DNA of 31,269 nt from a virus. The notes under the pieces were generated by a model. That model had not been told where the DNA came from, searched no databases, and was given only the letters and a program-made list of their open reading frames with translations. The stretch covers positions 1 to 31,269 of IMG/VR virus record IMGVR_UViG_3300045988_038873; one strand, given 5' to 3'. The position numbers were made by a program, and so were the translations under genes. Shown here one piece after another: positions 1-30,630 of the stretch; positions within the stretch are counted from its first letter, which is position 1, and every line of letters starts with the position of its first letter.

Positions 1-2
1 TT

Positions 3-455: not shown

Positions 456-481
456 TGGCTTGAGGGTGCTCAAGCCATTTT
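456..481 (+). terminator. Rho-independent terminator
   Basis: TGGCTTGAG-GGTG-CTCAAGCCA, a 9-bp perfect stem, followed by TTTT directly after the stop at 453-455. Confidence 0.8.
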
Positions 482-485
482 AATA

Positions 486-494
486 TGGTATAAT
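486..494 (+). promoter_or_regulatory. Extended -10 promoter-like element (TGgTATAAT) upstream of int
   Basis: TG at 486-487 and TATAAT at 489-494. No clear -35 element. It may be fortuitous in AT-rich DNA. Confidence 0.3.
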
Positions 495-530
495 ATATAA
501 AAGCCTATATATAAAGTATATATAGAAATA

Positions 531-551
531 TTGGCATATTTTTGGCATATT
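531..551 (+). repeat. Direct repeat TTGGCATATT x2 (11-bp period), a candidate integrase arm-type or regulatory site near attL
   Basis: Identical 10-mers at 531-540 and 542-551, between the flanking terminator and int. Confidence 0.5.
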
Positions 552-617
552 CTTTCATGAATTATGCCTTTTTTTATCCATTTTCTTGTGTATGATGTAG
601 AAAAAGAGGTGCAAGAA

Positions 618-6444: not shown

Positions 6445-6980
6445 AAACAAAACTAATAGGTAACTTCATCCGAAAATCAAGAAATGAAGATGGAAACCTA
6501 GAAATAACATTTGAATTAACTGAGCCAATGTACGAAGCATACGCTCAGAACCTTGTAAAAGGGGCGTATAGCGTAGTTATAGATTCAATAAGGTATTTAC
6601 GTACGAATGAGCAAAATCGTCTTATGTGGCATTTAATTAGTGAAATATGCAAAAACGATAATGCTATGTCAAATGATACATGGGACATGTATTGTGAATT
6701 TTTGAGAATGTCAAAAGCATGGTATACATATGTTTCTGTTGTTAAAGAAGGCTATGACGAATTGTGTCGAGCGCATGGAGTTAGAGCAGTACAGGCGTTA
6801 GGTACAGAAATAAGAAATAACGGAAAAGAATTTGTTAATTGTAGAGTATTTCTAGGCTCATCACAAATGGACACAAAACAAATGGGAGTATTAATTGATT
6901 GCATATTAGATTATGCCGAACAACTAGGAATCAGTACTCAATATTATTTAGATAAAGGAATCAAGGGGGAAGAAAAATAA
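6441..6980 (+). CDS. NinB/Orf-like recombination mediator (tentative)
   Basis: The TTG start overlaps the upstream stop. The RTNEQNRLMWHLISEI segment resembles the NinB RS..QN...W motif. Confidence 0.45.
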   Translation: MKTKLIGNFIRKSRNEDGNLEITFELTEPMYEAYAQNLVKGAYSVVIDSIRYLRTNEQNRLMWHLISEICKNDNAMSNDTWDMYCEFLRMSKAWYTYVSVVKEGYDELCRAHGVRAVQALGTEIRNNGKEFVNCRVFLGSSQMDTKQMGVLIDCILDYAEQLGISTQYYLDKGIKGEEK

Positions 6981-7345
6981 AATTTGTAATTAAAGGAAAA
7001 CTAGATGGATTGAATGAATATATTAGAGCTTGCCGAGCCAATCGTTACAAGGGAGCAGAAATGGTTAAAAAGAATGAGCGCTTAGTTATGGCTTATATCT
7101 TACAGGCAATAAATTTTGGTGAAGTTTACGAGGTTAAGAACTATCCTATCAAATTAAATATTGATTGGTATGAATCTGATAATAGAAGGGATATTGACAA
7201 CATTACATTTGCAACTAAATTCATTCAAGATTCATTAGTTAGAACAGGAATACTTGAGGATGATTCAAGGAAATACATTAATCAAGTGAATCATACAGTA
7301 TTTACAGATAAAGAGAATCCAAGGATAGAGGTAGAGATTTTATGA
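6977..7345 (+). CDS. rusA: RusA-like Holliday junction resolvase, apparent ATA start
   Basis: The open frame begins after TAA 6953-6955. The ATA at 6977 lies 6 nt after GGGGGA (6965-6970) and overlaps the upstream stop (ATAA). This restores the KFVIKGKLDGLNEY N-terminus. The track start (TTG 7010) truncates it. Confidence 0.65.
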   Translation: MKFVIKGKLDGLNEYIRACRANRYKGAEMVKKNERLVMAYILQAINFGEVYEVKNYPIKLNIDWYESDNRRDIDNITFATKFIQDSLVRTGILEDDSRKYINQVNHTVFTDKENPRIEVEIL

Positions 7346-7704
7346 GAGAGCAAGAAATGGCAGTAAACGTAGCAAAGCAAATTTACTTTGATGAATTCAA
7401 CTTGTTTTATCAAATTGCAGAAAGAAGCATAGGAGATACAAATTCAAAGGATGTATTTAATGAAGCGTGTACAGTTCATGATATTACCGAAGAATTTATA
7501 TATATGTTAGATGGATGTTATGACTACACAAAAGAGGGATTGTATAGGGTAGGAGTTAAAGCAATATATAAAGCATTGTACAAGCTTGATGCACCTTATA
7601 ACGATATTGAGATAAATTGCTATCTAGAATATATCGAAAAAATCATTGATGAAATCCTAAAGCAAGACGTAGTGCTTGGAGGTGAGCAAAATAGCAGTAA
7701 TTAG
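7342..7704 (+). CDS. Hypothetical protein
   Basis: The ATG overlaps the upstream stop (ATGA). 120 aa. Confidence 0.55.
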   Translation: MREQEMAVNVAKQIYFDEFNLFYQIAERSIGDTNSKDVFNEACTVHDITEEFIYMLDGCYDYTKEGLYRVGVKAIYKALYKLDAPYNDIEINCYLEYIEKIIDEILKQDVVLGGEQNSSN

Positions 7705-8431
7705 AATTATTAAGAACAAAAACTATACAGTGATGAGCAATACACATTTAAAAGATAAACGCTTATCACTAAAAGCAATAGGCTTGTTAAGCGTTGTTCT
7801 TGGCTTACCGGAAGATTGGCATTATACAGTAAATGGATTAGTTGGAATTGTAAAAGATGGGAAAGATTCAGTTGAAAGTGCAATTAAGGAATTAAAAAAG
7901 AATGGATATTTAAGAGTAGAGAAGATATATCCTAATGAAAATAGTAATAGGATTCAATATCAATATACATTCTTTGAGAATCCTCAAGAGGTGGATTTTC
8001 AAACCCTTGAAAATCAAGGTATTGAAAAGCAAGGTGTTGAAACTCAAGTACTTGAAAACCCCTACACTTATAAAGATACTAATAAACAAAATACTAATAA
8101 ATTAAATACTAATACACAAAGTAAACATAAATACGGAGAATATCAACACGTTCTATTAACAGATAAAGAACACACACACCTATTAGATTTATATGGTAAC
8201 TCATTGGATAAACATATAAAGATTCTTGATGAATATATTGAGACATCAGGAAAGAAATACAAGAACCATTCACTAGTGATTCAGAAGTGGGTACATGATG
8301 AATGGATGAAAAGAAATAAGAACAATCCTGTAAAACTTGATTCTAAATTCTATGCACAAGAAAGCAGTCAATCGTATGCAGATGTACATAAGGAAATGGA
8401 AAGGGTTAGAAAGGAAATATTAGGAGCATAG
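7691..8431 (+). CDS. Replisome organizer / DnaD-like replication initiation protein (start ATA 7691 favoured; TTG 7676 possible)
   Basis: Winged-helix N-terminus (NYTVMSNTHLKDKRLSLKAIGLL..KELKKNGYL) and a DnaD-like C-terminus (YGEYQHVLLTDKEH..YKNHSLVIQKWV). GGAGGTGA (7678-7685) lies 5 nt before the ATA. Iterons lie inside the gene. Confidence 0.65.
   Translation: MAVIRIIKNKNYTVMSNTHLKDKRLSLKAIGLLSVVLGLPEDWHYTVNGLVGIVKDGKDSVESAIKELKKNGYLRVEKIYPNENSNRIQYQYTFFENPQEVDFQTLENQGIEKQGVETQVLENPYTYKDTNKQNTNKLNTNTQSKHKYGEYQHVLLTDKEHTHLLDLYGNSLDKHIKILDEYIETSGKKYKNHSLVIQKWVHDEWMKRNKNNPVKLDSKFYAQESSQSYADVHKEMERVRKEILGA
8007..8120 (+). repeat. Two sets of 15-bp-period iterons (candidate phage origin of replication) inside the replisome organizer gene
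   Basis: TTGAAAAnCAAGGTn-like units begin at 8007, 8022, 8037 and 8052. ATACTAATAa units begin at 8076, 8091 and 8106. Confidence 0.6.
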
Positions 8432-8449: not shown

Positions 8450-8965
8450 ATGACAAGTAAAGATATTGAATTGATTAAAGAAATGCTTCAAATGCAAGCC
8501 AAATTGGATGAAGCAATTATGAAAGAATACGGATTAACTAAAATTGATGAAGAGAAGTTGTGCTTCGCTATTCTAGATGAAGTCGGTGAGTTGACTCACG
8601 AACTCAAAGCAAATTGGTGTTGGTGGAAAAAGACTCAAGCACCGGTTGACGATAAAAAGGTTTTAGGCGAATTAGTCGATGTTTGGCATTTCGTGTTAAG
8701 TTATCAAAATAACTTTTACAATGGAACTTCCATTTGTGATAATATTGATAATTTTCTTAACGGTTGCGGATTGTATATAGAAATGATTGTCAATGAACAA
8801 ATTCCGTTATCAATTATACTTTGTGACATTATTCAATTTAAATTACATAAAGTACATGCATTAATCGCAATAACAGAATATCTTGGCTTCACAATTGAAC
8901 AAGTATATGAAGCTTATTGCGGAAAGAATAAAATCAACTATCAAAGACTAGAAAGTGGGTACTAG
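8450..8965 (+). CDS. Dimeric (all-alpha) dUTPase / MazG-like nucleotide pyrophosphohydrolase
   Basis: The ILDEVGELTHELK..WKK and ELVDVWHFVLS motifs are typical of dimeric phage dUTPases. Confidence 0.6.
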   Translation: MTSKDIELIKEMLQMQAKLDEAIMKEYGLTKIDEEKLCFAILDEVGELTHELKANWCWWKKTQAPVDDKKVLGELVDVWHFVLSYQNNFYNGTSICDNIDNFLNGCGLYIEMIVNEQIPLSIILCDIIQFKLHKVHALIAITEYLGFTIEQVYEAYCGKNKINYQRLESGY

Positions 8966-10389: not shown

Positions 10390-10401
10390 GAGGTGGCATT
10401 A

Positions 10402-10731
10402 ATAGAAATGAATTATGAAGAAGTTAAAAAGCATTTTCTATGTGAATGCCAATCGTACACATATTATGAGCAAAAGATAGCAGAGCTACAAAGGGATGAA
10501 GCTATTTATCCATTAAAAGCCGAGCTATTCTTAGCTCATGCAGATTATGCAAGAAGAATGAACTATGTAAAAGACAAATTAAGCCAACTTGATGATACGA
10601 CTCGAACAATGATTGAGTATAGATATATAAAGGGATTCAGTGCAGAAAAGACATCTAATATTGTAGGTTATGCAAGAGAAGAAATTCCAAGAAAGATAAA
10701 CAAGAATTTGAAGAAAGTGCTCACAATGTGA
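10402..10731 (+). CDS. ArpU-family / sigma-region-4-like late transcription regulator (start ATA 10402 or ATG 10408)
   Basis: C-terminal HTH (TRTMIEYRYIKGFSAEKTSNIVGYAREEIPRKINKNLKK), at the last position of the early module. AGGAGG (10388-10393) lies 8 nt before the ATA and 14 nt before the ATG. Confidence 0.6.
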   Translation: MEMNYEEVKKHFLCECQSYTYYEQKIAELQRDEAIYPLKAELFLAHADYARRMNYVKDKLSQLDDTTRTMIEYRYIKGFSAEKTSNIVGYAREEIPRKINKNLKKVLTM

Positions 10732-10740
10732 GCATTTTTT
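10719..10740 (+). terminator. Palindrome GCTCACAATGTGAGC plus T-tract (terminator of the early operon)
   Basis: Hairpin at 10719-10733 followed by TTTTTT (10735-10740), overlapping the stop codon of the regulator gene. Confidence 0.6.
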
Positions 10741-10742
10741 CA

Positions 10743-10751
10743 TGTAATAAT
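10743..10751 (+). promoter_or_regulatory. Extended -10-like element (TGtAATAAT) 6 nt upstream of the tRNA 5' end
   Basis: TG at 10743-10744 and AATAAT at 10746-10751. The tRNA position 1 (A10758) would be near +1. No -35 was identified. Confidence 0.3.
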
Positions 10752-10757
10752 TGTTTT

Positions 10758-10833
10758 AGCAGGATAGAGCAGTAGTAGCTCACTAGTCTTATTAGCTAGA
10801 GGTCGAATGGTGCAAATCCTTCTCCTGCAACCA
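10758..10833 (+). tRNA. Initiator-like tRNA with anticodon UAU (reads AUA) and atypical D and T arms
   Basis: Acceptor AGCAGGA/TCCTGCA has six Watson-Crick pairs and an A1xA72 mismatch. Then TA, D stem GAGC/GCTC (A11:T24) and D loop AGTAGTA. Anticodon stem is CTAGT/GCTAG, with loop CTTATTA (anticodon TAT at 10790-10792). Variable loop is AGGTC. T arm is GAA(T)GG-TGCAAAT-CCTTC. A73 and CCA are encoded. Confidence 0.6.
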
Positions 10834-10917
10834 TGTTTACAAAGCCTATCAGTAAGTCCTTCCCAAATTAGATATTAAATACCAACAATGGCATACAAAA
10901 TTAGGCTTTGATATATT

Positions 10918-10942
10918 ACCGAGCGTTTGTCTCGGTTCTTTT
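10918..10942 (+). terminator. Rho-independent terminator
   Basis: ACCGAG-CGTTTGT-CTCGGT followed by TCTTTT. It lies 19 nt before the strong SD/ATG of the next operon. Confidence 0.7.
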
Positions 10943-10960
10943 AATAATAAGGAGGAGAAT

Positions 10961-11206
10961 ATGGATTCAAGAAAATTTCATGATTTAGCAATCAATGCAG
11001 TATTGCAAGTAAACCAAAATATTGAGGTAAGTGAAATGTTCGTTGTATGGATGTGTAAGACGCTACAGAACAATAAAGCATTAATCGGTGTACATCATTC
11101 ACCCAATTATTATGAGGTAACGTATAACGGCGATAAAAAGGAGTTATACGTTGATGAATACATCAAGAATACAAATACTTGTCTAAATGTAAATGACGCT
11201 CTATGA
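10961..11206 (+). CDS. Hypothetical protein
   Basis: The ATG follows AAGGAGGAGAAT. 81 aa. Confidence 0.55.
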   Translation: MDSRKFHDLAINAVLQVNQNIEVSEMFVVWMCKTLQNNKALIGVHHSPNYYEVTYNGDKKELYVDEYIKNTNTCLNVNDAL

Positions 11207-11226
11207 GTTTAAAAAAGGGGGATAAA

Positions 11227-11730
11227 ATGGAGATTATTAGATTAAAAATTAATGACATTACACCTTACGAAAAGAACGCAAAGATTCATACTGAAGCACA
11301 AATTGAACAAATTAAGAAATCTATTCAAGAATTCGGCATGAATGACCCAATCGCCGTATGGGGTAAAAACAATACAATCGTTGAAGGTCATGGGCGTTTA
11401 GAAGCCTTAAAGCAATTAGGCTATACAGAAGTTGACTGTATCAGACTAGACCATTTGACAGATGAAGAAAGAAAAGCCTATACACTTGCTCACAATAAAA
11501 TCAATATGAATACAGGATTCGACATTGATTTGTTAGATGAAGAATTAGACAGTATCGAAGATATTGATATGTCTGATTTTGGCTTTACTGAGCAGGATAT
11601 TGATTGGGACAATGTAGAAGATTTAAGTGATGATTCTTATGAAGAACCTCAACATGAAATGTGGAAATGCCCTCAGTGTGGACACGTAGATAGAAAAGAA
11701 CACTTTAAAGGAGTTCGTGACAATGAATAA
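11227..11730 (+). CDS. ParB-like nuclease domain (ParB/Srx fold) protein with C-terminal zinc ribbon
   Basis: The ATG at 11227 follows AAGGGGGAT. ParBc motifs are present (I..L.INDITPYEKNAKIH, IVEGHGRLEAL). The linker is acidic, and the C-terminus has WKCPQCGH. Confidence 0.75.
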   Translation: MEIIRLKINDITPYEKNAKIHTEAQIEQIKKSIQEFGMNDPIAVWGKNNTIVEGHGRLEALKQLGYTEVDCIRLDHLTDEERKAYTLAHNKINMNTGFDIDLLDEELDSIEDIDMSDFGFTEQDIDWDNVEDLSDDSYEEPQHEMWKCPQCGHVDRKEHFKGVRDNE

Positions 11731-11742
11731 AACTACACCTAA

Positions 11743-12498
11743 TTGAAAATATTTCTAAGTGCATTAGAGGTAAAACGAGGTAAGAAACCATTATCAAGAA
11801 TCTTAGTCGAGCAAGGCATTCAAATGAAATATAACCTAATGTCTTATTACTACCTAAGAAAGAATTTAAATGACGCATATTTCATAAAAGAGAACAGTCA
11901 ATTAGTAATCATAGACAGTGGAGCGCATAGTTTCCAAAAAGGGACAAAAGTTGATTGGGTAGAATATACCAAGCAATACGCAGAATTTATCAAAGAATTT
12001 GATGAGGACAAGGTTGTAGGATATTTTGAAATGGATGTAGACAACATCTTAGGCTATGAAAAGGTATTAGAGTTAAGAAAAATATTAGAATCTGTATCTG
12101 ATAAGATTATTCCTGTATGGCATAAGAACAGAGGAATACAAGACTTCAAAGATATGTGTAAGAAATATCAAGGTAAGGTCGTAGCAATTACAGGATTCAA
12201 GAATGAAGACATTAAAGATGAACAATACATTATGTTTTTGAAATATGCAAAGAAATATAATTGTAAAGTTCATTGTCTTGGTATGACAAGAAAAAAAGTG
12301 CTTGATAGAGTGCCGTTTGATTATTGTGATTCAAGTACATGGGTACAACAATCAGTTTATGGGCGTATCAATGGGCTAGGCAAAGTATCAAGAGAAATGT
12401 CAAGGACAAATAAAGAACAAGTAATGATAGAGAATTATAAGCAATTTATGCAAATGCAAGAAAAATATGAGCAAAAATGGAGGAACGTGAATAAATAG
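11743..12498 (+). CDS. dpdA: DpdA-like DNA-guanine transglycosylase (TGT superfamily)
   Basis: VIIDSGAHSFQKG resembles the TGT DSGGFQ motif. PFDYCDSSTW resembles the second catalytic Asp region of DpdA proteins. It sits next to QueT-like and ParB-like genes. TTG start, with no nearby SD. Confidence 0.6.
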   Translation: MKIFLSALEVKRGKKPLSRILVEQGIQMKYNLMSYYYLRKNLNDAYFIKENSQLVIIDSGAHSFQKGTKVDWVEYTKQYAEFIKEFDEDKVVGYFEMDVDNILGYEKVLELRKILESVSDKIIPVWHKNRGIQDFKDMCKKYQGKVVAITGFKNEDIKDEQYIMFLKYAKKYNCKVHCLGMTRKKVLDRVPFDYCDSSTWVQQSVYGRINGLGKVSREMSRTNKEQVMIENYKQFMQMQEKYEQKWRNVNK

Positions 12499-12946
12499 AA
12501 ATAAGACGATAGCTTTTAATGCAGTAATGTGTGCATTGTATGTTGTAGCAACGACAATTAACCCAATCGGATATGGAGTATTTCAATTTAGGGTTAGTGA
12601 ATTAATGACAGTATTTCCTGTTCACTTCAAAAAAGCACGTATCGGATTGCTTTTAGGAGTAGCAATAGCAAATGCAATGAGTCCATTGGGATTTATTGAT
12701 GTATTCTGTGGGACATTAACGGCAGGATTATTGTATTACCTAATTGATAGACTACCGGTACACAATTACATTAAATACATTCTATATTCATTAGAAGTAG
12801 GATTAATTATTGGTTGGGAATTACAGTTGGTATATCATATGCCATTTGCATTAACATTCTTTACTACATTTATTCCGGAAATGATTCTATGCATTATCGG
12901 TGATTTATTAGCAAAGAAATTAAAGCATTATGTAAATATTGATTAG
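12491..12946 (+). CDS. queT: QueT-family queuosine-precursor (preQ0/preQ1) transporter, apparent ATA start
   Basis: Multi-TM protein with FQFRVSEL and GVAIANAMSPLGFIDVFCGTL motifs. The ATA at 12491 is the first codon after an in-frame TGA and lies 6 nt after GGAGGA (12479-12484). This adds KTIAFNAV to the first TM segment. Confidence 0.7.
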   Translation: MNRNKTIAFNAVMCALYVVATTINPIGYGVFQFRVSELMTVFPVHFKKARIGLLLGVAIANAMSPLGFIDVFCGTLTAGLLYYLIDRLPVHNYIKYILYSLEVGLIIGWELQLVYHMPFALTFFTTFIPEMILCIIGDLLAKKLKHYVNID

Positions 12947-12959
12947 AGGTGATAGACAC

Positions 12960-13328
12960 ATGGCAAGAAAAAAAATTATTAATCAAAAACAATTTGAAGC
13001 GTTATGTGAGATTCAATGCACAAAGGATGAAATCTGCGCCGTGTTAGATGTATCAGACAAAACATTAGACAGATGGTGTAAAGAAACATATGAAACGTCA
13101 TTCTCCGATATTTTCAGACAAAAAAGGCAAGGAGGGTGTGCAAGCCTAAGAGCGAAGCAGTGGAAACTAGCTTCAAAAAGTCCTGCTATGGCTATTTTCT
13201 TAGGAAAACAATTCCTAGGTCAAACTGATAAGGTAGAAACACATTTTGACGCTTCAGAAGTAAATGCAATTAATAAAGCTATGATTACAGATGTAGCAAA
13301 AGAAAGAAGAATTGAAGATTTTGAATAA
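12960..13328 (+). CDS. terS: Terminase small subunit
   Basis: The ATG at 12960 follows AGAGGTGA. N-terminal HTH (FEALCEIQCTKDEICAVLDVSDKTLDRW). It lies directly upstream of terL. Confidence 0.7.
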   Translation: MARKKIINQKQFEALCEIQCTKDEICAVLDVSDKTLDRWCKETYETSFSDIFRQKRQGGCASLRAKQWKLASKSPAMAIFLGKQFLGQTDKVETHFDASEVNAINKAMITDVAKERRIEDFE

Positions 13329-14649: not shown

Positions 14650-16053
14650 ATAGAAACATCTAACACACGTAGACCGTGGTTTCAGAATTACCTAAACGAA
14701 AGAGGGTATTATGTAGACACAAACGCAATTGAGATTATTGAATTGTGCAATAAGTGGTACACAAATACCGAAACAGAATTTCATACGGCATACACATTAA
14801 ATAACGAGGAATACACGTTAGATAAAGCAGACTTTGCAAAGCGTTTATGTGAGGATGACGCAAACTTAATTGAAATCCTAGATATAAACGCAACAGAGGA
14901 CAGTGCTACAAATGACATTATTTCAGACATTCTAACAAAGAATAGGTTCGATGTAATGTATAGGAAACAAGTTGAGCAAATGTCTGCAAATGGTACAGTA
15001 GGAGCTTATGTGACGGTATCTAATGCCGAGATTTATGAAGATGGTTCATTTAGTGGAGGAGAAATCAGAATCAACTATTGTGATTCAATGAATATCCTAC
15101 CATTAACTGTTATTAACGATGAAATTGTGGAAGTGGCTTTTGTTGGAGTAAATTATGAGAAACTAAAGAAAGTATATGTGATGGTCATGTTCTTAAAAGG
15201 ACAAGACGAAAGATACATTGCAGAAACACATTACTTCAAAGATACAGGCGAAGAAATAAAAGACCGTGCTCAGATTGTTCAATTAGATGTTGTAAAGCCG
15301 TTTGCAATTATGAGAAACGCAAAGGTAAACAACTTACAAATGCAAGGTTACGGCTTGCCGAAGATTTGGAGCGCAATTGCTCCATTGAAAACAATCGATT
15401 TAACAATGACAATGTGGAATCGTGATTTGTTGAAATCAGATAAAATCGTTCTTGTGAATGAAGCATTAATGCAGAAAGACGAGAATGGAAAGATTAAGAT
15501 GAATCCACAAATGAAAAAGATATTCGTTCAGTTAGGTAGAGATAAGCTTCCGGAAGAAAAAGCCTTGTGGCAAGAATACAATCCAACAGTTAGAACTCAA
15601 GAGGTTGTGCAATCGTTAGAAACTGCGTTAAGTATCTTATCAATGATGTTTGGATTCGGTACAAAAAAATACACGTTTGAAAGTGGAAGAATCGTAACGG
15701 CTACAGAATATATCGGCGAAAATCAAGACGCAATGAAAGAAGTAAATTCACAACGTAAAGAATCTACTGCATATATTCAAGATATCATTCAAGCAATAGC
15801 ATACTTCTATGAGTTAACACAAGGTAGAAAGCTTAATATTAATTCATTAGACATTGCGATTGATTATGATGATACATATATCGAGGATAAGCAAAGCACG
15901 GCACAAGCGTTAAGAAATGACGCACTAACATTTGATATTCCAAGATTAAAGATTATGTATTTCATGAAACAATACGGATTCACTGAAGAAGAAGCAACTG
16001 AGTTATTAAATGAAGAAATTCAAGATGATGGAGAGGGGGATGACGAAGAATAG
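14650..16053 (+). CDS. Portal protein (SPP1 gp6-like), apparent ATA start
   Basis: The ATA at 14650 lies 6 nt after AGGAGG (14638-14643), one codon (GAA) after the terL stop in the same frame. This restores RPWFQNYLNERGYYVDTNAIEIIELCNKWY. The track start (TTG 14743) leaves a 96-nt gap. Confidence 0.75.
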   Translation: METSNTRRPWFQNYLNERGYYVDTNAIEIIELCNKWYTNTETEFHTAYTLNNEEYTLDKADFAKRLCEDDANLIEILDINATEDSATNDIISDILTKNRFDVMYRKQVEQMSANGTVGAYVTVSNAEIYEDGSFSGGEIRINYCDSMNILPLTVINDEIVEVAFVGVNYEKLKKVYVMVMFLKGQDERYIAETHYFKDTGEEIKDRAQIVQLDVVKPFAIMRNAKVNNLQMQGYGLPKIWSAIAPLKTIDLTMTMWNRDLLKSDKIVLVNEALMQKDENGKIKMNPQMKKIFVQLGRDKLPEEKALWQEYNPTVRTQEVVQSLETALSILSMMFGFGTKKYTFESGRIVTATEYIGENQDAMKEVNSQRKESTAYIQDIIQAIAYFYELTQGRKLNINSLDIAIDYDDTYIEDKQSTAQALRNDALTFDIPRLKIMYFMKQYGFTEEEATELLNEEIQDDGEGDDEE

Positions 16054-17492: not shown

Positions 17493-18101
17493 ATAGCTAT
17501 TGAATATTTAGATAAGAGTGGACTAACGCTCTTGATTAGCAAAATTAAATCGGCGTTAGGTGGGAAAGTTGATGTCGTAAGTGGTAAAGGCTTATCGACA
17601 AATGACTATACTAGCGCAGAAAAGCAAAAATTAAGTGGTATCGCAAGTGGTGCTCAAGTGAATGTGATTGAGTCTGTAAAGGTAAATGGTACGAAATTAA
17701 CGCCAAACTCAAAAGCCGTGGATGTTACAGTGCCTACAAAGACATCACAATTAACAAATGACAGTGGATATCAGTCGGCGACGAGCGTTGAGTCAATTAT
17801 CACGGCTAAAGGGTATCAAACGCAATCACAAGTACAATCGTTGATTAATTCGGCAGTCGGTAATATTACATCTATTAGATATAAAAAGGTAACTAGCTTA
17901 CCTGCTACAGGTTCAAATGGTGTAATTTATCTGTTAGCACATTCACATGGAACACAAGATATCTATGATGAGTATATTTGGCTTTCAGAGACAAAGACAT
18001 ACGAAAAGATTGGTAATACAGACATTGATTTATCGGCGTATGTTAAGAAGTCAGAATTAACTGCGATTACTACAAATGATTTAAATACAATGTGGGGTTA
18101 G
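17493..18101 (+). CDS. Tail (or head) fibre protein, apparent ATA start
   Basis: The ATA at 17493 lies 7 nt after AGGAGG (17480-17485). This restores AIEYLDKSGLTLLISKIKSAL. The GKGLSTNDYTSAEKQKLSGI motif is typical of fibre proteins. Confidence 0.65.
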   Translation: MAIEYLDKSGLTLLISKIKSALGGKVDVVSGKGLSTNDYTSAEKQKLSGIASGAQVNVIESVKVNGTKLTPNSKAVDVTVPTKTSQLTNDSGYQSATSVESIITAKGYQTQSQVQSLINSAVGNITSIRYKKVTSLPATGSNGVIYLLAHSHGTQDIYDEYIWLSETKTYEKIGNTDIDLSAYVKKSELTAITTNDLNTMWG

Positions 18102-21650: not shown

Positions 21651-22520
21651 ATACCAAATGAAATTGCATTAGCTAAAACGTATGTCTCAAATTTGGATGA
21701 GGTATATAAGTTAGCTTCAGTTACAGGTGATTTAAATGCAGACGCTACAATGGTACGAGCAGGAGCAAACGCAAAAGAAATCATCTATCCACAAATTTCT
21801 GTTAAAGGTTTAGGAAACTACGATAGAAACAGTGGTTATACAGGTAACTCAGTTAAGTTAGAATGGAAAACTGCTACATTCGACTATGATAGAGGAACTA
21901 AAATCTCAGTTGATACACAAGATAACGCAGAATCAATGAATATTGCGTTTGGTATGGCAGGAGCGGAGTTAATGCGTACAAAGGTTGCACCGGAAGCAGA
22001 CGCTTACACATTCGCTAAGATTGCCGGTACAACAGGAATCACAAAGGTTTCAGAAGATTACGAAGGAGCGCAGGCATTCTTAGACGCATTATTAAAAGCA
22101 GTTACTAAGATGGATGAAGATGAAGTTCCTTCCGAACAACGTATCTTGTATTCAACACCAACATTATTAAATAGCGTTAAAGCATTAGATACATACAAAT
22201 CTCGTGAAGCTTTACAAGGATTTGCAAAAATTGTTCCTGTACCTTCAACACGATTCTATACAAAAATTAAATTGTTGAGTGGAAAAGATACAGAGTTAGA
22301 GGGCGGATACGAAAAGGCAGAGGATGGACACGCAATCAACTTCTTAATTGTTCACAAACCTGCCGTAATGAAATGGGATAAACACACCGTTTCAAATGTA
22401 ATTCCGGCAAGCAATAACATTGAATCAGATTCAGATGTACTAAAATATCGTAAATATGGAATCGTTGATGTATACCAAAATAAGGTAGCAGGTATTTACT
22501 TATCTGCTAGTGCTGAGTAA
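21651..22520 (+). CDS. Major capsid protein, apparent ATA start
   Basis: The ATA at 21651 lies 9 nt after AGGAGG (21636-21641), two codons after an in-frame TAA. This restores PNEIALAKTYVSNLDEVYKLAS. The track start (TTG 21693) leaves a 56-nt gap after the scaffold gene. Confidence 0.75.
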   Translation: MPNEIALAKTYVSNLDEVYKLASVTGDLNADATMVRAGANAKEIIYPQISVKGLGNYDRNSGYTGNSVKLEWKTATFDYDRGTKISVDTQDNAESMNIAFGMAGAELMRTKVAPEADAYTFAKIAGTTGITKVSEDYEGAQAFLDALLKAVTKMDEDEVPSEQRILYSTPTLLNSVKALDTYKSREALQGFAKIVPVPSTRFYTKIKLLSGKDTELEGGYEKAEDGHAINFLIVHKPAVMKWDKHTVSNVIPASNNIESDSDVLKYRKYGIVDVYQNKVAGIYLSASAE

Positions 22521-22992: not shown

Positions 22993-23408
22993 TAGGATTC
23001 TTTGAAGATTCAATCACACTTGTAAATCACTACTATGATACGTTAACAAGAGAAGATAGGTTTCAAGCTTCTATACTTGATAAATGTATGTGGAGACAAT
23101 CAACTGTTAGAACTGCAAATGGTAATATTCTGAGCATAGCCACATCCACAAATATTACCATCTTATATCGTGAGGGATATGTTGAACCTTACGCATATGC
23201 AAAACTTTCAAATGATGAGAAACAAAAGCACTTCACATTAAATACAGATAAAACAGATTTCGTATTCTTTGGAGAAGTCAAAGAAAATTTATCTAGTATC
23301 AAGGCAATAAACGAAGCTAAAAAGAAATACAAATGGACAACAATTCAAAGCGTAACAGATTGTACGAATGTCGATATGTTGAAGCATTGGGAGGTTGTCG
23401 GTCAATAG
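22989..23408 (+). CDS. Head closure / head-tail joining protein (by position)
   Basis: The ATG at 22989 overlaps the upstream stop (ATGA). Confidence 0.45.
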   Translation: MIGFFEDSITLVNHYYDTLTREDRFQASILDKCMWRQSTVRTANGNILSIATSTNITILYREGYVEPYAYAKLSNDEKQKHFTLNTDKTDFVFFGEVKENLSSIKAINEAKKKYKWTTIQSVTDCTNVDMLKHWEVVGQ

Positions 23409-23767
23409 GTATCAAAGTTAAACTTGATGTTAAATCACTTCAAGAATTTAAACAATCAAGAGGACTTGAAGAACGTGGACGAGTTCAACAAATGATTGAT
23501 TCTGAAGTCATTAGGCTTATGACCCCCTATACGCCTAGAGACACAGGAGCATTGATTAACTCGGCTACAAGAAACACTCAAATCGGAAGTGGATTAGTAA
23601 AGCAAGGTGGACCAAGTGCTCCATATGCTAGACGGTGGTATTACAACAAAGAGAATGCTCATTTCGTTGGTGGAAAGACAGACCATTGGTTTGAAAAAGC
23701 TATGCGAAATGGTGGAGCAGAGACAATCGCAAAGAAAGCACAACAAATGATAGGAGGTAGTGAATGA
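23405..23767 (+). CDS. HK97 gp10-like tail-completion protein, apparent ATA start
   Basis: The ATA at 23405 overlaps the upstream stop (ATAG), 10 nt after GGGAGG (23389-23394). The track ATG (23333) would overlap the upstream gene by 76 nt and has no SD. Confidence 0.55.
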   Translation: MGIKVKLDVKSLQEFKQSRGLEERGRVQQMIDSEVIRLMTPYTPRDTGALINSATRNTQIGSGLVKQGGPSAPYARRWYYNKENAHFVGGKTDHWFEKAMRNGGAETIAKKAQQMIGGSE

Positions 23768-24183
23768 CAGTATCAAAAGCGTTGATTCAATGGCTTTATG
23801 GCTATGGAAATATACAGATAGATGAACGTATTGAAACAGATGTTTTAGCGCAACAAGCTATCTCTTATGCGTTGTATAAAGAACCTAACGCAATTGTAAA
23901 TACATACATTGATGGTTCTCAAATGCGTACTGAATACTACACGTTTCTAGCACGTAGGAATACACAAATTGAATCAGAAAGACAAGATAACAATGTTTTT
24001 CTAGAAGAATTAGAAAATTGGATTGACGAAAAGAATTTAAGCGGAGAATTACCACAACTAGACGGAAACAGACATTGTGATGATGTTTCCGTTTCAAGTG
24101 GTTTATATCTATACACAAATGAGGATAATCAAGCAGTATATGCATTGACTATTCAAATTAAATACAGAAAGGAGCTTAATTAA
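23764..24183 (+). CDS. Tail terminator-like / minor structural protein (by position)
   Basis: The ATG follows AGGAGGTAGTGA and overlaps the upstream stop. Confidence 0.45.
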   Translation: MTVSKALIQWLYGYGNIQIDERIETDVLAQQAISYALYKEPNAIVNTYIDGSQMRTEYYTFLARRNTQIESERQDNNVFLEELENWIDEKNLSGELPQLDGNRHCDDVSVSSGLYLYTNEDNQAVYALTIQIKYRKELN

Positions 24184-24689
24184 TAGCAACTCAAGGAACT
24201 GAAGTAACTACAGGACAAACAGTCAAGAAGTATATGATTGGATTGTTCTTGCAAATGGGAGAAGGTTACAAGCGAATTAAAAAGTCTACAACTTTAGATA
24301 TTTCATTCAATAGTGAAACTGAAACGTATGACTTTATCGCAGATAAGAACCCAACAGAATCATTAAAGAGTTATTCACCTCAGATTTCGCAAGATTTAAC
24401 AATGATTAAAGGCGAAGATGATTTTGAATACATTTACGAACAAATGATGAAATCCGTACCAAACAACGAAGAAGTAAATACAAAAGCTTTACTTGTATTT
24501 ATGTTTGACGGAGACAAAACTAAAGGCTATAAAGCGTGGGAAGTTGACGCTAAATTAATTTTCGACACATTAAGTGGTGCTGATTCAAAAATCAACTTCA
24601 ACATTAACTTTGCAAGCGACATTCGTGTCGGTACTGCAAGGGTAGCAGATGGAGCAGTAACATTTACAGAAGGCACATCAGAAGTATAA
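24183..24689 (+). CDS. Major tail protein, apparent ATA start
   Basis: The ATA at 24183 lies 8 nt after AAAGGAG (24168-24174), two codons after an in-frame TAA. This restores ATQGTEVTTGQTVKKY. It lies upstream of the chaperone pair and the tape measure. Confidence 0.65.
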   Translation: MATQGTEVTTGQTVKKYMIGLFLQMGEGYKRIKKSTTLDISFNSETETYDFIADKNPTESLKSYSPQISQDLTMIKGEDDFEYIYEQMMKSVPNNEEVNTKALLVFMFDGDKTKGYKAWEVDAKLIFDTLSGADSKINFNINFASDIRVGTARVADGAVTFTEGTSEV

Positions 24690-25650: not shown

Positions 25651-28230
25651 ATATCGGACGGAACATTAAAGTTTGATACAAAGATTGATACAAGTGGTCT
25701 AGAGAATGGAATGAAATCCGTTCATGAAGTTACAAGTGGAGCTACAAATGCTATCAAAGAAACTTCAAAAGCAATCGACAAGTTAGGTTCTGATGGTTCA
25801 AAAGCACCACCGAAGATTAAAGAAAAACTTAAAGATTTAAATGATGAGCAAAAGAATACACAGACAGAAACGCAAGAAACAGGTTCAAAGTTTGATGTAT
25901 TTAAAAAGGTTGGAAACAGTGCCTTAGAATCAATTCAAGGCGGATTTGATGGACTATTAGGAAAGATTCAGAATATTAGTCCGGAAGCTACTGCAATCAC
26001 TGAAACTTTAACAGGATTAGGCGTTGGAGGTGTTGCAGGCGTTACTGCCGTAGCAGGAGCTATCGGTGGTATGGCATTAGCAATTAAAACAGGTGTTAAC
26101 CAAGCTACAGAACTAGATGACGCTATGGCTAAATTTCAAGCTCAAACAGGTGCTTCAAGCAATGAAATGAGCAAATTTAAAAACATTGCTCGTGATGTTT
26201 GGTCAAACAATTTCGGTGAAGATGTTTCAGATGTTGCCGATATGATGGGCAGAGTCAAGCAACAAATGCAAGGCATAAGTGACGTTGACCTAAAGAACGT
26301 GACCGAGGATTTATTAACTTTAAGAGATACATTCGATATGGATGAGAATGAAACTCTTAGAGGTGCTCAACAATTAATGAAGCAGTTCGGAATCACTTCT
26401 CAAGAAGCTTTCGACCTTATGGCTACAGGTGCTCAGAATGGTTTAAACAAATCAGATGAGTTGGGCGATAACATTTCAGAATACTCCGGTAAATTCGCAC
26501 AAGCAGGATATTCGGCAGATGAATATTTCCAATTAATGCAGAATGGATTAGATGGTGGAGCATATAACCTTGATAAAGTAAATGACGCAATCAACGAAGT
26601 TACCACAAGGTTAGTTGATGGAACTATTGAAGGAGCTTTAGATAGTTTTGATACCAAAACACAAGATGTATTTAAGGCATGGCAAGAAGGAAGAGCAACT
26701 CAAAAAGATGTTGTGAATGCGATTGTAGAAGATATTTCAAAGACTACAAATGAACAAGAAAAGTTGAATAAAGCAAGTATTGCATTCGGCACAATGGGAG
26801 AAGATTTCAACTCCGGATTCATTCAGTCCTTAACAACAGTAGGGAACAAATATAAAGATGTAGAAGGAGCAATGGATAAAGTCAAAGAAATTGCAAATGG
26901 TGGCTTAAAGAATGCTTTAAGTGGCTTAGGACGTGCATTTCTTGATTCATTTACTCCAATAGGCGAACTTATTACCCCTATTCTTGCAGGTATCATCGGA
27001 TTGATTACAGTAGCTATACAAGGTATTCAACAAGGATTTGCTAAAGTTGGTGATGTAATTTCAAGTGTGTTAAGCAAGATTGATACAAGTGGAATTACAG
27101 AATTGACAAGTCAAGTTTCAGAGGTGTTAGCTCCTGCTTTTGATGAGGTCAGAAAAGCGATTGACGAAATGAAAGTTGCTCTTGAACCTATTGCAAAAGA
27201 AATCTTAGGTAAAATTGGTAACGCAATTCAAAATGTAGTAAACCAAGCTCAAAAGATTCTTAGCGTAGTAGGACCACCGATTCTAGCAATCATCAAGAAT
27301 ATTATCCAAACAGTTGTCGGTATGATTCCTGTAATAACATCTATCCTTCAAGTTGTTGGAAGTGTAGTAAGTGGAATCATTTCATTTATAAATATGGTTG
27401 TAACGTATGTTGGGACTGCGATTGCGACAATACTAGGATTTATCATGCCTATTGTTCAAATTGTAGCTACAATTGTAGCGAATATTTGGTCTGTAATATT
27501 AACGGTTGCTCAGAATATTTGGAGCAAAGTTAGCGAAGTAGTTACTGCTATTATTGGATTTGTAAGCAATTTGTTTAAAACAGTTTCGGACATCATAAAC
27601 AATATTTGGAGTAAGATTCAAGATTCCATGAACAAGGTAAGAGACAAGGTTCAAGGCGTTATTGATAATATTAATAAATATTTCAATAATGTTAAGAGTA
27701 CTGTTTCTGATGTATTCAATGGCATTTGGTCTAAGGTTCAAGGTGTAATGGACAATGTGGGAAATAAAATTTCAAATGTTTTACAAGGAATACAGAATGC
27801 ATGGAACGGTTTAAAAGGGTTTGTAGGTGGTGTATTCGGTGGAATTGAAGGAGCAGTAGGTTCATTAGTCTCTAGTGTAAAAGGAATGGTAAATGGTGTT
27901 ATCGGTGGCATTAACGGTGCAATAAGTATCATCAACAAGATTCCCGGAGTTCACATTGGAAGAATCCCTAGGCTAGAGCGTGGTGGTGTATTAAAACGTG
28001 GACAAATCGGTTTATTGGAAGGTAACGGAGCAGAAGCAGTCGTACCATTAGAAAAAAATAAAGCATGGATTCGTGCCGTAGCTAAAGATATGGCTCAAAT
28101 CATGCCTAGCGTTACGACAAATAACAATGGACAGACTATCAACTTCTACAATAAAGCGCAAAGTCCGGATGAAATTGCTAGAATGTTACGTATGCAAGCA
28201 AGATATGGATATGGAGGTGTAGTTCAATAG
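25651..28230 (+). CDS. Tape measure protein, apparent ATA start
   Basis: The ATA at 25651 is the first codon after an in-frame TGA, 11 nt after AGGAGG (25634-25639). This restores SDGTLKFDTKIDTSGLENG. The protein is long and helical, with G/A/I/V-rich repeats. Confidence 0.8.
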   Translation: MSDGTLKFDTKIDTSGLENGMKSVHEVTSGATNAIKETSKAIDKLGSDGSKAPPKIKEKLKDLNDEQKNTQTETQETGSKFDVFKKVGNSALESIQGGFDGLLGKIQNISPEATAITETLTGLGVGGVAGVTAVAGAIGGMALAIKTGVNQATELDDAMAKFQAQTGASSNEMSKFKNIARDVWSNNFGEDVSDVADMMGRVKQQMQGISDVDLKNVTEDLLTLRDTFDMDENETLRGAQQLMKQFGITSQEAFDLMATGAQNGLNKSDELGDNISEYSGKFAQAGYSADEYFQLMQNGLDGGAYNLDKVNDAINEVTTRLVDGTIEGALDSFDTKTQDVFKAWQEGRATQKDVVNAIVEDISKTTNEQEKLNKASIAFGTMGEDFNSGFIQSLTTVGNKYKDVEGAMDKVKEIANGGLKNALSGLGRAFLDSFTPIGELITPILAGIIGLITVAIQGIQQGFAKVGDVISSVLSKIDTSGITELTSQVSEVLAPAFDEVRKAIDEMKVALEPIAKEILGKIGNAIQNVVNQAQKILSVVGPPILAIIKNIIQTVVGMIPVITSILQVVGSVVSGIISFINMVVTYVGTAIATILGFIMPIVQIVATIVANIWSVILTVAQNIWSKVSEVVTAIIGFVSNLFKTVSDIINNIWSKIQDSMNKVRDKVQGVIDNINKYFNNVKSTVSDVFNGIWSKVQGVMDNVGNKISNVLQGIQNAWNGLKGFVGGVFGGIEGAVGSLVSSVKGMVNGVIGGINGAISIINKIPGVHIGRIPRLERGGVLKRGQIGLLEGNGAEAVVPLEKNKAWIRAVAKDMAQIMPSVTTNNNGQTINFYNKAQSPDEIARMLRMQARYGYGGVVQ

Positions 28231-29096
28231 ATATCAATAAAGTAAGAGTTATTGTCCGTAGGGATGATGGCAAAGAATTTGAAATCGACAACAAAAGATG
28301 GAGAATACCATCTAGTGATGGTTTAGATGGATTTGATTATGTAGCACCTTCATATACGACTCAAGACAATGCATTCGGAAATGGTGCTAGATTAATCGGT
28401 TCACGTATTCCAACGAAAGAAAGAAGCGTGAAAGCTACATTTAAAGGTTCACTTGAAGAAAAAAGAGAAGAAAGGGAGAAGCTACGACGCTTCTTCCAAT
28501 ATTCTCATATATTTGACGTTATAGTTGAGTATATGGGAGAAAAGAAATATTGCAGAGGAAGGTTATACGCATATAGCTTGCCTACTGTTAACATCTACAA
28601 AGATTTAGAGCTTAACTTTACAATTCTATGCACACAACCTTTGTTGCTTTCATTTGATGATTTCGCAAGGAATATAGCAGAAATTGGTGAAGGTTTAGCG
28701 TTCAATTTTGAAATACCGGAAACAGGCGTAAACTTTGGAACATTTACATTCGCTAGAGAAATCTATATTGATAATCAAGGCGATACAGAAACATACTGTA
28801 GAGCCGTTATTGAAGCATTCGGAGAGGTAACAAATCCGAAACTATTCAATAAAGATAAATATATTCGTGTATTAGATACGCTACACAATGGCGATGTATT
28901 AGAAATTGATTTAGTTTCTGAGCCTATTTCGATTAAAAAAAATGGCGTGAATTGTATTGGGAAAGTTGACAGAACCTCATCATTCAATGATATGACTATT
29001 CAATTAGGTGAGAATATCATAGGATATACGGCAGACAATGGAGATACGAATCTAGCTTGCACAGTTTACTACAATGAAAGGTATTTAGGTATATAG
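28227..29096 (+). CDS. Distal tail protein (Dit), apparent ATA start
   Basis: The ATA at 28227 overlaps the tape-measure stop (ATAG), 9 nt after GGAGG (28213-28217). This adds 67 aa (DINKVRVIVRRDDGKEFEI..GLDGFDY..). The track start (GTG 28428) leaves a 197-nt gap. Confidence 0.65.
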   Translation: MDINKVRVIVRRDDGKEFEIDNKRWRIPSSDGLDGFDYVAPSYTTQDNAFGNGARLIGSRIPTKERSVKATFKGSLEEKREEREKLRRFFQYSHIFDVIVEYMGEKKYCRGRLYAYSLPTVNIYKDLELNFTILCTQPLLLSFDDFARNIAEIGEGLAFNFEIPETGVNFGTFTFAREIYIDNQGDTETYCRAVIEAFGEVTNPKLFNKDKYIRVLDTLHNGDVLEIDLVSEPISIKKNGVNCIGKVDRTSSFNDMTIQLGENIIGYTADNGDTNLACTVYYNERYLGI

Positions 29097-30123: not shown

Positions 30124-30630
30124 ATAGAAAAGAAAAATGGAGGATTTAAACAAATAGCAAGAAGTATGTTTTTTCTAGATAAGATTAATGCAATGTGTGG
30201 CGTAGCCGTAGCTGTATTAACATACGTATTAGGTGAGCATTGGTATTTATTTGCATTCTTCTTATTTATGAATGTAGTGGATTATATTACAGGGTGCATG
30301 AAGTCGGCAATCAATCACAAAATCAATAGCAATAAAGGATGGATTGGAGTTCTAAAAAAACTAAGCTATTGGATTATGATTGTAGTTGCGTTCACATTCA
30401 GTGCATTTCTAGTGGAAGTAGGAAAAATTCTAGGAATTGATTTTCACGTGTCTACATTGTTAGGTTGGTTTGTGTTAGCTTCGCTATGTATTAATGAATC
30501 TCGTAGTGTTATGGAGAATTTATTACAATGTGGTTACAAAGTACCAAAAGCATTAACTAAAGGATTAGAAGTAGCAGATAAACTCATTAACGAAGAACAA
30601 GACAATGACGAATCAAGTACCTTGGAATAA
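30124..30630 (+). CDS. Holin (phage_holin_4 / LL-H, TcdE-like). Start ATA 30124 favoured; alternatives are 30115 GTG, 30154 ATA and 30166 ATG.
   Basis: It has TM helices and the motif MNVVDYITGCMKSA..NSNKGWIGVLKKLSYW. AAGGAG (30110-30115) lies 8 nt before ATA 30124. A second GGAGG (30139-30143) lies 10 nt before ATA 30154. Confidence 0.7.
   Translation: MEKKNGGFKQIARSMFFLDKINAMCGVAVAVLTYVLGEHWYLFAFFLFMNVVDYITGCMKSAINHKINSNKGWIGVLKKLSYWIMIVVAFTFSAFLVEVGKILGIDFHVSTLLGWFVLASLCINESRSVMENLLQCGYKVPKALTKGLEVADKLINEEQDNDESSTLE

Follow-up and report, generated by a model that had tools for sequence, protein, structure and literature searches.

The window analyzed here, IMG/VR virus record IMGVR_UViG_3300045988_038873 at its full length of 31,269 nt, is a temperate siphovirus-type prophage with a G+C content of 33.6%. 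On its plus strand it carries, at 10758-10833, the gene of an initiator-type tRNA with the anticodon UAU, and in the same direction a set of genes that have ATA at the position of the start codon. The subject of this report is the relationship between this tRNA and these start codons. The first open reading frame (ORF) of the window, at 3-455, belongs to the chromosome of Holdemanella, a member of the Erysipelotrichaceae from the human gut, and this flanking gene identifies Holdemanella as the host.

An initiator-type tRNA gene with a UAU anticodon

The gene is 76 nt long and can be followed arm by arm. In the acceptor stem, AGCAGGA/TCCTGCA, the pairs run from G2:C71 to A7:T66 and A1 lies unpaired opposite A72. 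After TA comes the D stem GAGC/GCTC, which gives A11:T24 and encloses the loop AGTAGTA, without GG; a single A then leads to the anticodon stem CTAGT/GCTAG around the loop CTTATTA, followed by the variable loop AGGTC. The T arm, GAA(T)GG, TGCAAAT and CCTTC, has one extra stem base and G at position 55. The discriminator is A73, and CCA is encoded at 10831-10833. An earlier interpretation made without any database search, called here the sequence-only reading, had described the same cloverleaf with its CCA, stems, loops, mismatches and anticodon position, and all its statements about the sequence were confirmed when the letters were read again. A shifted register of the anticodon (UUA, an ochre suppressor) was rejected; the loop is an ordinary 7-membered one.

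ARAGORN and covariance models had been proposed as a check on the gene, and their answers diverge. ARAGORN called zero tRNAs over the whole window, so routine annotation would miss the UAU tRNA gene, whereas the Rfam and initiator-family models match it. Rfam RF00005 aligns with 10758-10830 over its full length (model 1-71 of 71) at 48.8 bits (E = 1e-7), above the gathering threshold of 29 bits; this is the sole Rfam match in the window, and a permissive Rfam search of 10600-11000 returned nothing except the tRNA. In the minimum-free-energy fold the acceptor, D and T arms form and the anticodon arm does not, with pairing that runs into the anticodon loop, and the fold energy is unremarkable (z-score -0.96); the case for the cloverleaf is therefore built on Rfam and covariation.

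The UAU tRNA gene recurs in >100 contigs from the human gut and is shared by three diverged phage lineages (L numbers are labels of the phage loci and contigs compared). A search of IMG/VR for the D arm together with a CTNATNA loop retrieved 76 contigs, about half of them with the window type of tRNA; the CAU tRNAs encoded by the remaining contigs share its unusual D loop (AGUAGUA) and T loop (UGCAAxU) and have initiator features. When the anticodon was left free in the IMG/VR scan, every further family member had CAU; among >40 phage tRNAs sharing the D arm, the UAU group is the sole exception. The window tRNA matches this phage initiator-like family in the D arm (GAGCAGTAGTAGCTC, exact), the variable loop AGGTC and G55 and differs by its anticodon; its closest CAU relative (L146/L152, acceptor GGCAGGA) resides in an ATG-start phage. 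GenBank phages (50,697 records) gave only 7 matches, all partial, four of which are annotated tRNA-Met genes, and the one inspected closely, the tRNA-Met of Phabba, has initiator features. Further UAU copies came from human-gut metagenomes.

The second UAU lineage, L163/L171, reads CGCAAGG...CCTTGCAACCA, with C1 x A72 and with the canonical GG and TTC in its loops. The third, L247-249/L290, reads GGCAGAG...CTCTGCAACCA, with G1 x A72, and carries GCTT and AGGTA instead of GCTC and AGGTC; it was found by the covariance model and missed by sequence patterns. As a separate observation, A18 always accompanies G55 and G18 always accompanies U55 in the phage CAU initiator-like family (IMG/VR contigs L002-L076 and L146-L152), a switch that looks like covariation of the tertiary 18:55 contact and that recurs inside the UAU group, between the window and L092.

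Ten distinct UAU variants from the three lineages were aligned and compared with 500 shuffles and with slid controls. Pairing is found in 94% of the cells, which none of the 500 shuffles matches and the slid controls approach only to 38-57%. In eight stem pairs both partners have changed, a number reached by 1 of the 500 shuffles; the acceptor and anticodon stems contribute three of these pairs each and the T stem two. The covariation score of 0.352, against a shuffled mean of 0.182, was reached by none. Position 1:72 is unpaired in all ten variants, as AxA in the window, CxA in L163/L171 and GxA in L247-249, and 2:71 to 7:66 always pair. G2:C71, C3:G70, A4:U69, A11:U24 (10/10), G30:C40 and A73 are invariant across the three lineages. 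The anticodon loop CUUAUUA shows no variation in the ten variants, while the stem beneath it varies by compensatory pairs. The UAU tRNA gene is conserved and structurally constrained, not a relic.

These data bear directly on the idea of a decaying tRNA-fMet pseudogene, or an attachment-site remnant, without function. Such a remnant would explain why ARAGORN rejects the gene and why its D loop, T loop and T-stem bulge are odd, and bacterial assemblies do contain degraded pieces of tRNA-fMet in which the 'anticodon' reads TAT; a loose UAU pattern scan of genome assemblies found only such pieces, together with chance matches in unrelated assemblies. We nevertheless give this idea practically no weight. 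The gene is of full length with its CCA and lies in mid-prophage rather than at the ends, it is conserved over >100 contigs and three lineages, the covariation, with eight compensatory pairs beside a constant loop, excludes a pseudogene, and the odd D and T loops themselves covary (A18-G55, G18-U55) across a large phage tRNA family.

Initiator and elongator character were compared with a covariance model, R1, made from 25 CAU initiator-like tRNAs, including one cellular tRNA from a Collinsella genome assembly. On R1 the UAU tRNAs score 78.2 (window), 81.7 (L092), 77.3 (L171) and 68-70 bits (L247-249 lineage), as against at most 57.9 bits for the host elongators tRNA-Lys, tRNA-Val and tRNA-Thr and 29 bits for tRNA-Tyr. 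The ranking is reversed on the general tRNA model of Rfam, where host elongators reach 58-76 bits and UAU tRNAs 48-56.5. Because the gene is conserved and covaries, and because the ranking reverses between the two models, it is neither a pseudogene nor an ordinary elongator. An assignment to one of these classes by covariance models is what the sequence-only reading had named as evidence against itself; R1 instead favors the UAU tRNA over the host elongators. Overall identity to cellular reference tRNAs is uninformative, at 0.58-0.71 for initiators and elongators alike.

Individual positions tell the same two groups apart. All variants contain the formyltransferase determinants G2:C71, C3:G70 and A73, and the two initiator marks, no Watson-Crick pair at 1:72 and a purine 11:pyrimidine 24 pair, are both present. 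With bacterial tRNA-fMet the UAU tRNA shares the 1:72 mismatch, these determinants, A11:U24, G30:C40, the AGGTC variable loop and several sequence blocks, and it groups with phage and cellular initiators in the covariance model. It differs in having UAU instead of CAU, U37 instead of A37, and U.G or C:G at 31:39; the window variant differs also in 29:41 (A:U), in A18/G55 and in the extra T-stem base. UAU and U37 are invariant where an initiator would have CAU and A37, and we therefore call the molecule initiator-type rather than tRNA-fMet. An elongator tRNA-Ile(UAU) has the same anticodon, which is the only point of agreement: its paired 1:72, its Y11:R24 and its A37 are all absent from the phage tRNA.

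ATA start codons and the preceding base

Stop-to-stop ORFs were searched for Shine-Dalgarno (SD) motifs. Thirteen rightward genes have an SD followed by ATA precisely where the reading frame opens at its 5' end (Table 1). In many rightward genes the SD is of GGAGG type, ATA comes 5-11 nt on and no farther than a few codons from the preceding in-frame stop, and a canonical start with an SD of its own is absent nearby. Counted with a 6-mer SD, a spacing of 5-10 nt and >=60 downstream codons, the window contains 13 ATG, 10 ATA, 1 GTG, 1 ATT and 0 ATC starts; the codons other than ATG and ATA are neighbors of true starts, and the minus strand is almost empty. About 30% of the rightward genes of the window are ATA-start genes. 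The gene just before the tRNA, for a small and putatively late regulator, is one of them, and the pre-tRNA gene also starts with ATA in L160, L163, L171 and L248. The 859-aa gene would be the tape measure to judge from size and position. The integrase and the two leftward genes begin with ATG or TTG, and all ATA starts lie in rightward lytic units, a split that fits a translational lock on lytic genes, although three genes are too few as a test.

Three independent comparisons bear on these codons. Protein-family profiles start at the ATA in the major head gene, the gene at 17493, QueT and the minor head gene (Table 1). Orthologues show ATA and ATG replacing each other at the identical position behind the same SD in five cases: the genes at 17493, 24183, 12960 (terS) and 18352 and a second QueT type. 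For the gene at 17493, L029 and L061 have ATG at that position. The start of the major head gene is ATA in the L171 and L247-249 lineages as in the window, and in ~55 more distant phages the aligned codon is ATG, with proteins that begin M-P-N or M-A-N versus I-P-N or I-A-N. The portal gene of L171, ~55-63% identical to that of the window over tblastx segments, likewise has an SD and an A-ATA start. Judged from these comparisons, the ATA codons are genuine start sites.

Their distribution follows that of the tRNA. We counted SD-linked starts at the 5' end of ORFs with no canonical start within 3 codons. Holdemanella-type phages have 242 canonical and 157 ATA starts, 151 of the latter with A at -1; the corresponding numbers are 17 and 18 in L247-249 and 2 and 4 in L171. 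Relatives that possess a CAU initiator-like tRNA (L235-238) have 44 canonical and 3 ATA starts, and 51 other capsid relatives 545 and 20, which is the level of control codons. ATA starts are absent from host genes: the host chromosome gave 34 ATG and 1 ATA, and the lone ATA is directly followed by ATG. Apparent ATA starts in the non-user phages also read ATA-ATG, so the real start there is ATG. Each of the three ATA-using lineages has a tRNA with the CUUAUUA loop, and model and pattern searches detected one in no other locus searched. In L171, whose terminase and portal proteins are only ~40-63% identical to those of the window over tblastx segments, the regulator, the portal, the major head gene and two more genes have an SD and an A-ATA start. 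ATA starts and the UAU tRNA co-occur across lineages.

The base before the start codon differs as well. In the window, A occupies -1 at 13 of 13 ATA starts and at 15 of 29 ATG starts (Fisher p = 0.0016); among unique contexts in 45 loci the numbers are 62/68 for ATA and 124/214 for ATG (p = 1.3e-7). A at -1 marks ATA starts specifically, and U37 is complementary to it (AAUA vs UAUU). The sequence-only reading had listed U37 only as a departure from tRNA-fMet; the departure stands, and to it must be added the match with the -1 base. Mutants of E. coli tRNA-fMet, A37U and A37G, revealed that position 37 pairs with mRNA position -1, with A37U favoring the complementary base in place of the A37-U(-1) quadruplet pairing (PMC10018350). 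That effect is modest and belongs to engineered mutants, whereas the same pairing in the phages would be natural, nearly invariant and combined with a weaker third pair, U34:A. Initiation factor 3 (IF3) accepts non-AUG codons if the initiator anticodon is complementary, and in vitro any Watson-Crick match of the first two bases suffices, with stronger third pairs preferred (PMC10158994). The U37:A(-1) pair may compensate for the weaker U34:A pair that replaces C34:G.

The -1 base also helps to weigh a reading in which decoding is not the point of the altered loop. Phage tRNAs with anticodon-loop changes have reportedly been proposed to evade anticodon nucleases, and the UAU tRNA could be a decoy or replacement against host defences that cleave or inactivate tRNA-fMet, its loop changes serving to escape the nuclease. 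Loop and 31:39 are indeed remodeled relative to the CAU relatives. A replacement initiator, however, would need CAU for the ATG starts of the phage, the CAU relatives in the tRNA family all keep CAU, and evasion predicts neither ATA starts nor A at -1. We consider this explanation very improbable.

Proposed decoding of AUA starts

The best reading of these sequences, which we hold with good confidence, is a phage-encoded initiator tRNA that decodes (A)AUA starts. The phage tRNA would descend from tRNA-fMet through the changes CAU to UAU and A37 to U. In the lytic programme it would be made as a small separate transcript, be charged by a host synthetase and enter the ribosomal P site at SD-positioned AUA codons, with Watson-Crick pairing to all three bases of AUA and probably a further pair between U37 and the preceding A. 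Such a start signal would be read poorly by the host initiator and well by the phage tRNA, and full expression of the ATA-start genes would consequently depend on the phage tRNA. The proposal in the sequence-only reading of a diverged initiator retargeted to AUA gains support from the R1 scores of the family, the preserved 1:72 mismatch, the limitation of ATA starts, which are frequent in the phage, to tRNA-bearing lineages, and the match of U37 with the A at -1. Expression, charging, formylation and P-site use of the UAU tRNA are what we infer from these comparisons, as is its biological purpose, for which a translational lock on lytic genes and independence from the host initiator pool are candidates; the joint occurrence of SD-positioned ATA starts and the tRNA is indirect evidence for charging, formylation and P-site use. 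It is likely, in our view, that the system amounts to a natural orthogonal initiation channel, in which a non-CAU virus initiator reads a four-base A-AUA signal (UAU-U37) on a third to half of the phage genes, so that capsid, portal, tail, lysis and replication proteins are made efficiently only with the phage tRNA; their N-terminal residue may be (formyl-)isoleucine. Isoleucine seems somewhat more likely than methionine as the amino acid, because the anticodon dominates identity for methionyl-tRNA synthetase (MetRS) and isoleucyl-tRNA synthetase (IleRS) and some Firmicute IleRS accept UAU. As background, UAU reads AUA in the tRNA-Ile(UAU) of Mycoplasma mobile and of B. subtilis tilS suppressors, and some IleRS of Firmicutes and Mollicutes charge UAU.

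Alternatively, the tRNA could be an elongator tRNA-Ile(UAU) that supplements AUA codons, with the ATA starts read inefficiently by host tRNA-fMet by virtue of a strong SD. Both halves of this account have some basis. Internal AUA is 1.6-2.4x more frequent in the phage (14.7 per 1000 codons, 20% of Ile) than in host genes (6-9 per 1000, 8-10%), and AUA starts behind an extended SD are used by the ordinary initiator in S. aureus (infC, ccpN, citZ), where they give 10-30% of AUG output (PMC13009471). AUA starts in S. aureus are rare and attenuating, and those of animal mitochondria are read by a modified CAU tRNA, whereas in the phages 30-50% of genes begin with AUA, the most strongly expressed ones among them, and a cognate tRNA is encoded alongside. 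A start efficiency of 10-30% is improbable for the major capsid and portal genes. The elongator account is also at odds with the molecule itself, which has the 1:72 mismatch in all lineages, A11:U24 in place of Y11:R24 and a pyrimidine at 37, and which lies ~20 bits above host elongators on the initiator-family model and below them on the general model; and it leaves the co-distribution of ATA starts and tRNA, as well as the invariant A(-1)-U37 match, unexplained. We regard it as improbable.

Several points nevertheless weigh against an AUA initiator, beyond the surplus of internal AUA codons. The case for it is wholly comparative, and the locus counts are not independent, because the loci share ancestry; about 13 gene families and 3 lineages can be counted as independent units. 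Absence of the tRNA from non-user relatives refers to 10 kb on each side of the capsid gene and to the IMG/VR pattern scans. ATA starts were found via their SD, which affects any comparison of SD strength, and the stronger SD of ATA starts is therefore partly a matter of ascertainment. MetRS needs C34, and E. coli IleRS uses t6A37, which U37 excludes; neither enzyme is known to accept such a tRNA. The anticodon stem departs from the three-G:C rule (29:41, 30:40, 31:39), in line with the sequence-only reading, which had noted that the three consecutive pairs are absent: the window has A:U, G:C and U.G and the other variants G:C, G:C and U.G, so that 29:41 is G:C or A:U, and at 31:39 nine variants have U.G and one has C:G. 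C:G or U.G is an unusual orientation at 31:39, and the fewer G:C pairs (one in the window, two elsewhere) would weaken P-site selection by E. coli standards. This loss is less serious because the invariant G30:C40 is the pair essential in E. coli, which it alone can sustain, and au/GC/gu initiators are natural in mycoplasmas (PMC5389676). Finally, the host tRNA could contribute at AUA, perhaps at a basal level, since AUA starts in S. aureus work with the normal initiator (PMC13009471).

An AUA initiator would depart from what is known in a defined way. Few features of translation are as constant as AUG-type starts and a CAU initiator, and CAU is, to our knowledge, the anticodon of every natural initiator tRNA yet described. 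Engineered orthogonal initiators follow the principle proposed here, namely a tRNA-fMet body with a changed anticodon, a complementary non-AUG start and chosen genes made dependent on the tRNA: an amber initiator tRNA(CUA) has reportedly been used for phage biocontainment, and i-tRNA-AAC is said to be another such construct. The phage tRNA differs from them in being natural and phage-borne, in serving a third to half of the genes and in its matching 37/-1 change. In recoded gut phages, a phage suppressor tRNA alters the reading of a stop codon, and genes written in this private dialect need the phage tRNA. A virus tRNA would change codon reading here too; this tRNA is of initiator type, not an elongator, and the UAU tRNA does not belong to the described suppressor class because the recoded codon is a start, not a stop.

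The sequence-only reading knew of no described phage system of this kind, and a full-text literature search likewise found no natural phage system with AUA starts or with a non-CAU initiator tRNA. As a system, a start codon private to a virus would be without precedent; the tRNA itself falls within known kinds (initiator or phage recoding tRNA). If the reading is right, this would be, as far as we know, the first natural non-CAU initiator tRNA and the first reassignment of a start codon by a virus. Start codons would then be reassignable in nature, as stop codons are, with dozens of matching AUA starts, and phage gene control would have an additional layer, in which the start dialect of the lytic genes is poorly read by the host. 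The system would also offer a natural test case for 37/-1 pairing, for codon-anticodon proofreading by IF3 and for the limits of the three-G:C rule, and it would supply Gram-positive synthetic biology and phage containment with a ready-made orthogonal initiator.

Annotations of the abundant Holdemanella phages are likely affected, because the tRNA escapes ARAGORN and at least some ATA-start genes (QueT) are truncated or misplaced in public calls. In the public gene calls around the tRNA (L090-L099), ATA-start genes are placed at later or earlier canonical codons, and QueT is called with 139 or 159 aa instead of 151; database proteins of Holdemanella-type phages consequently carry wrong N-termini.

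Flanking elements and prophage context

The tRNA gene stands between two hairpins with T runs. At the upstream one we read a plus-strand terminator, although the terminator scan called this near-palindromic stem on the minus strand only; the downstream one was found by terminator scan and fold. In the other two lineages, too, the tRNA is followed by a hairpin and T run, and a TATAAT box lies ~20 nt upstream of the L171 tRNA. A sigma-70 promoter scan upstream of the window tRNA found no convincing promoter; by our own reading, a TGnAATAAT-like box ends 7 nt before the gene. These flanks suggest that the UAU tRNA is a discrete small transcript. Between the tRNA and the downstream hairpin, at 10840-10910, a 9-bp helix (CAAAGCCUA/UAGGCUUUG) encloses ~50 nt (fold z-score -2.1); it has no Rfam match, and L092 has a different sequence there.

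Table 1. Features of the window, with the evidence for each; ATA denotes an ATA start codon
Feature	Position	Strand	Evidence and remarks
Integrase	618-1715		followed by two leftward lysogeny genes
Small ORF, 41 aa	3823..3948	+	ATA, SD GGAGGTG, A at -1; ATA in 6/6 orthologous contexts
Early region		rightward	Erf, RusA, replication initiator, SSB (profile matches)
RusA-like resolvase	6977..7345	+	ATA, weaker SD AAGGGGG; phrog_1682 from residue 2; ATA in 10 orthologous contexts
Replication-initiation/DnaD-like gene	7691..8431	+	ATA, SD GGAGGTG; phrog_11718 2-99 on residues 2-98
Small sigma-70 region-4-like regulator	10402..10731	+	A-ATA, SD AGGAGGT, 7 nt; weak Sigma70_r4, phrog_36; directly upstream of tRNA
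Hairpin and T run at end of upstream gene	10718..10740	+	GCTCAC-AAT-GTGAGC; T run 10735-10740
Initiator-type tRNA, anticodon UAU, encoded CCA	10758..10833	+	sequence, Rfam, initiator-family model R1, covariation, >100 contigs
Anticodon loop C-U-UAU-U-A	10788..10794	+	anticodon 10790-10792, U37 at 10793
Terminator-like hairpin and TCTTTT	10918..10942	+	85 nt downstream of tRNA; terminator scan, fold
DUF6275, ParB_N, TGT/DpdA-like gene, QueT	between tRNA and terminase		
QueT transporter	12491..12946	+	ATA; PF06177 1-140 of 141 from ATA, only 8-140 from first ATG
Terminase, portal, head, tail and holin genes	3' of QueT		
Portal	14650..16053	+	ATA 4 nt after TerL stop, SD AAGGAGG, 6 nt; phrog_533
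phrog_24103 gene	17493..18101	+	ATA; profile 4-195 of 197 on residues 4-200
Major head protein	21651..22520	+	ATA; phrog_422 3-294 of 297 on residues 3-288
Minor head/neck gene	23405..23767	+	ATA; PF11114 1-75 on residues 3-86; ATA in 16 orthologous contexts
Structural gene (phrog_3099)	24183..24689	+	ATA; one orthologue (L126) with ATG at same position
859-aa gene, tape-measure position	25651..28230	+	SD AAGGAGG, A-ATA is first codon after in-frame stop; ATA in 8 orthologous contexts
Distal tail protein (Dit)	28227..29096	+	ATA, SD GGAGGTG, 7 nt; phrog_33, PF22768
Holin-like gene	30124..30630	+	ATA, SD AAGGAG, 8 nt; phrog_199

No close relatives of the window were found among the 50,697 GenBank phage records: a megablast of 10400-11300 against GenBank phages gave no match, nor did tblastn with the upstream regulator as query, and there is no close relative in culture. 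The insertion site of the prophage, beside the ribosomal-protein/rpoA cluster, has a Holdemanella hypothetical gene on one side and ecfA on the other (window 1-560; L100-L107); in prophage-free contigs the counterpart of the first ORF lies between rpoA-rplQ and ecfA-ecfA-ecfT-truA. Other contigs have different integrase-bearing elements a few kb away, 3' of rpsI, which makes the rpoA/ecfA region an integration hot spot.

Downstream of the tRNA, the TGT/DpdA-like gene (phrog_887, 'queuine tRNA-ribosyltransferase', 251 aa) adjoins the QueT transporter gene within 11743-12946. The pair looks like a 7-deazaguanine module in the prophage, probably for DNA modification; a link between the tRNA and these neighbors was rejected, as the tRNA has no G34. 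Sister phages L093, L094 and L098 have an ABC-like gene and a GNAT acetyltransferase in the same place. A mini-ORF of seven codons (MNKTTPN; 11723-11746) with its own SD ends in a TGA that overlaps the TTG (11743) opening the TGT/DpdA-like ORF, an overlap that may reflect translational coupling. The ORF of the terminase large subunit overlaps the end of terS, and at 13297-13330 no SD-linked ATG, GTG, TTG or ATA start was found; TTG 13312 is a candidate. In L235, a related ATG user, a skipping-rope RNA (RF02924, 60.6 bits) occupies 8839-8918, ~340 nt upstream of the CAU initiator-like tRNA and directly before the major head gene.

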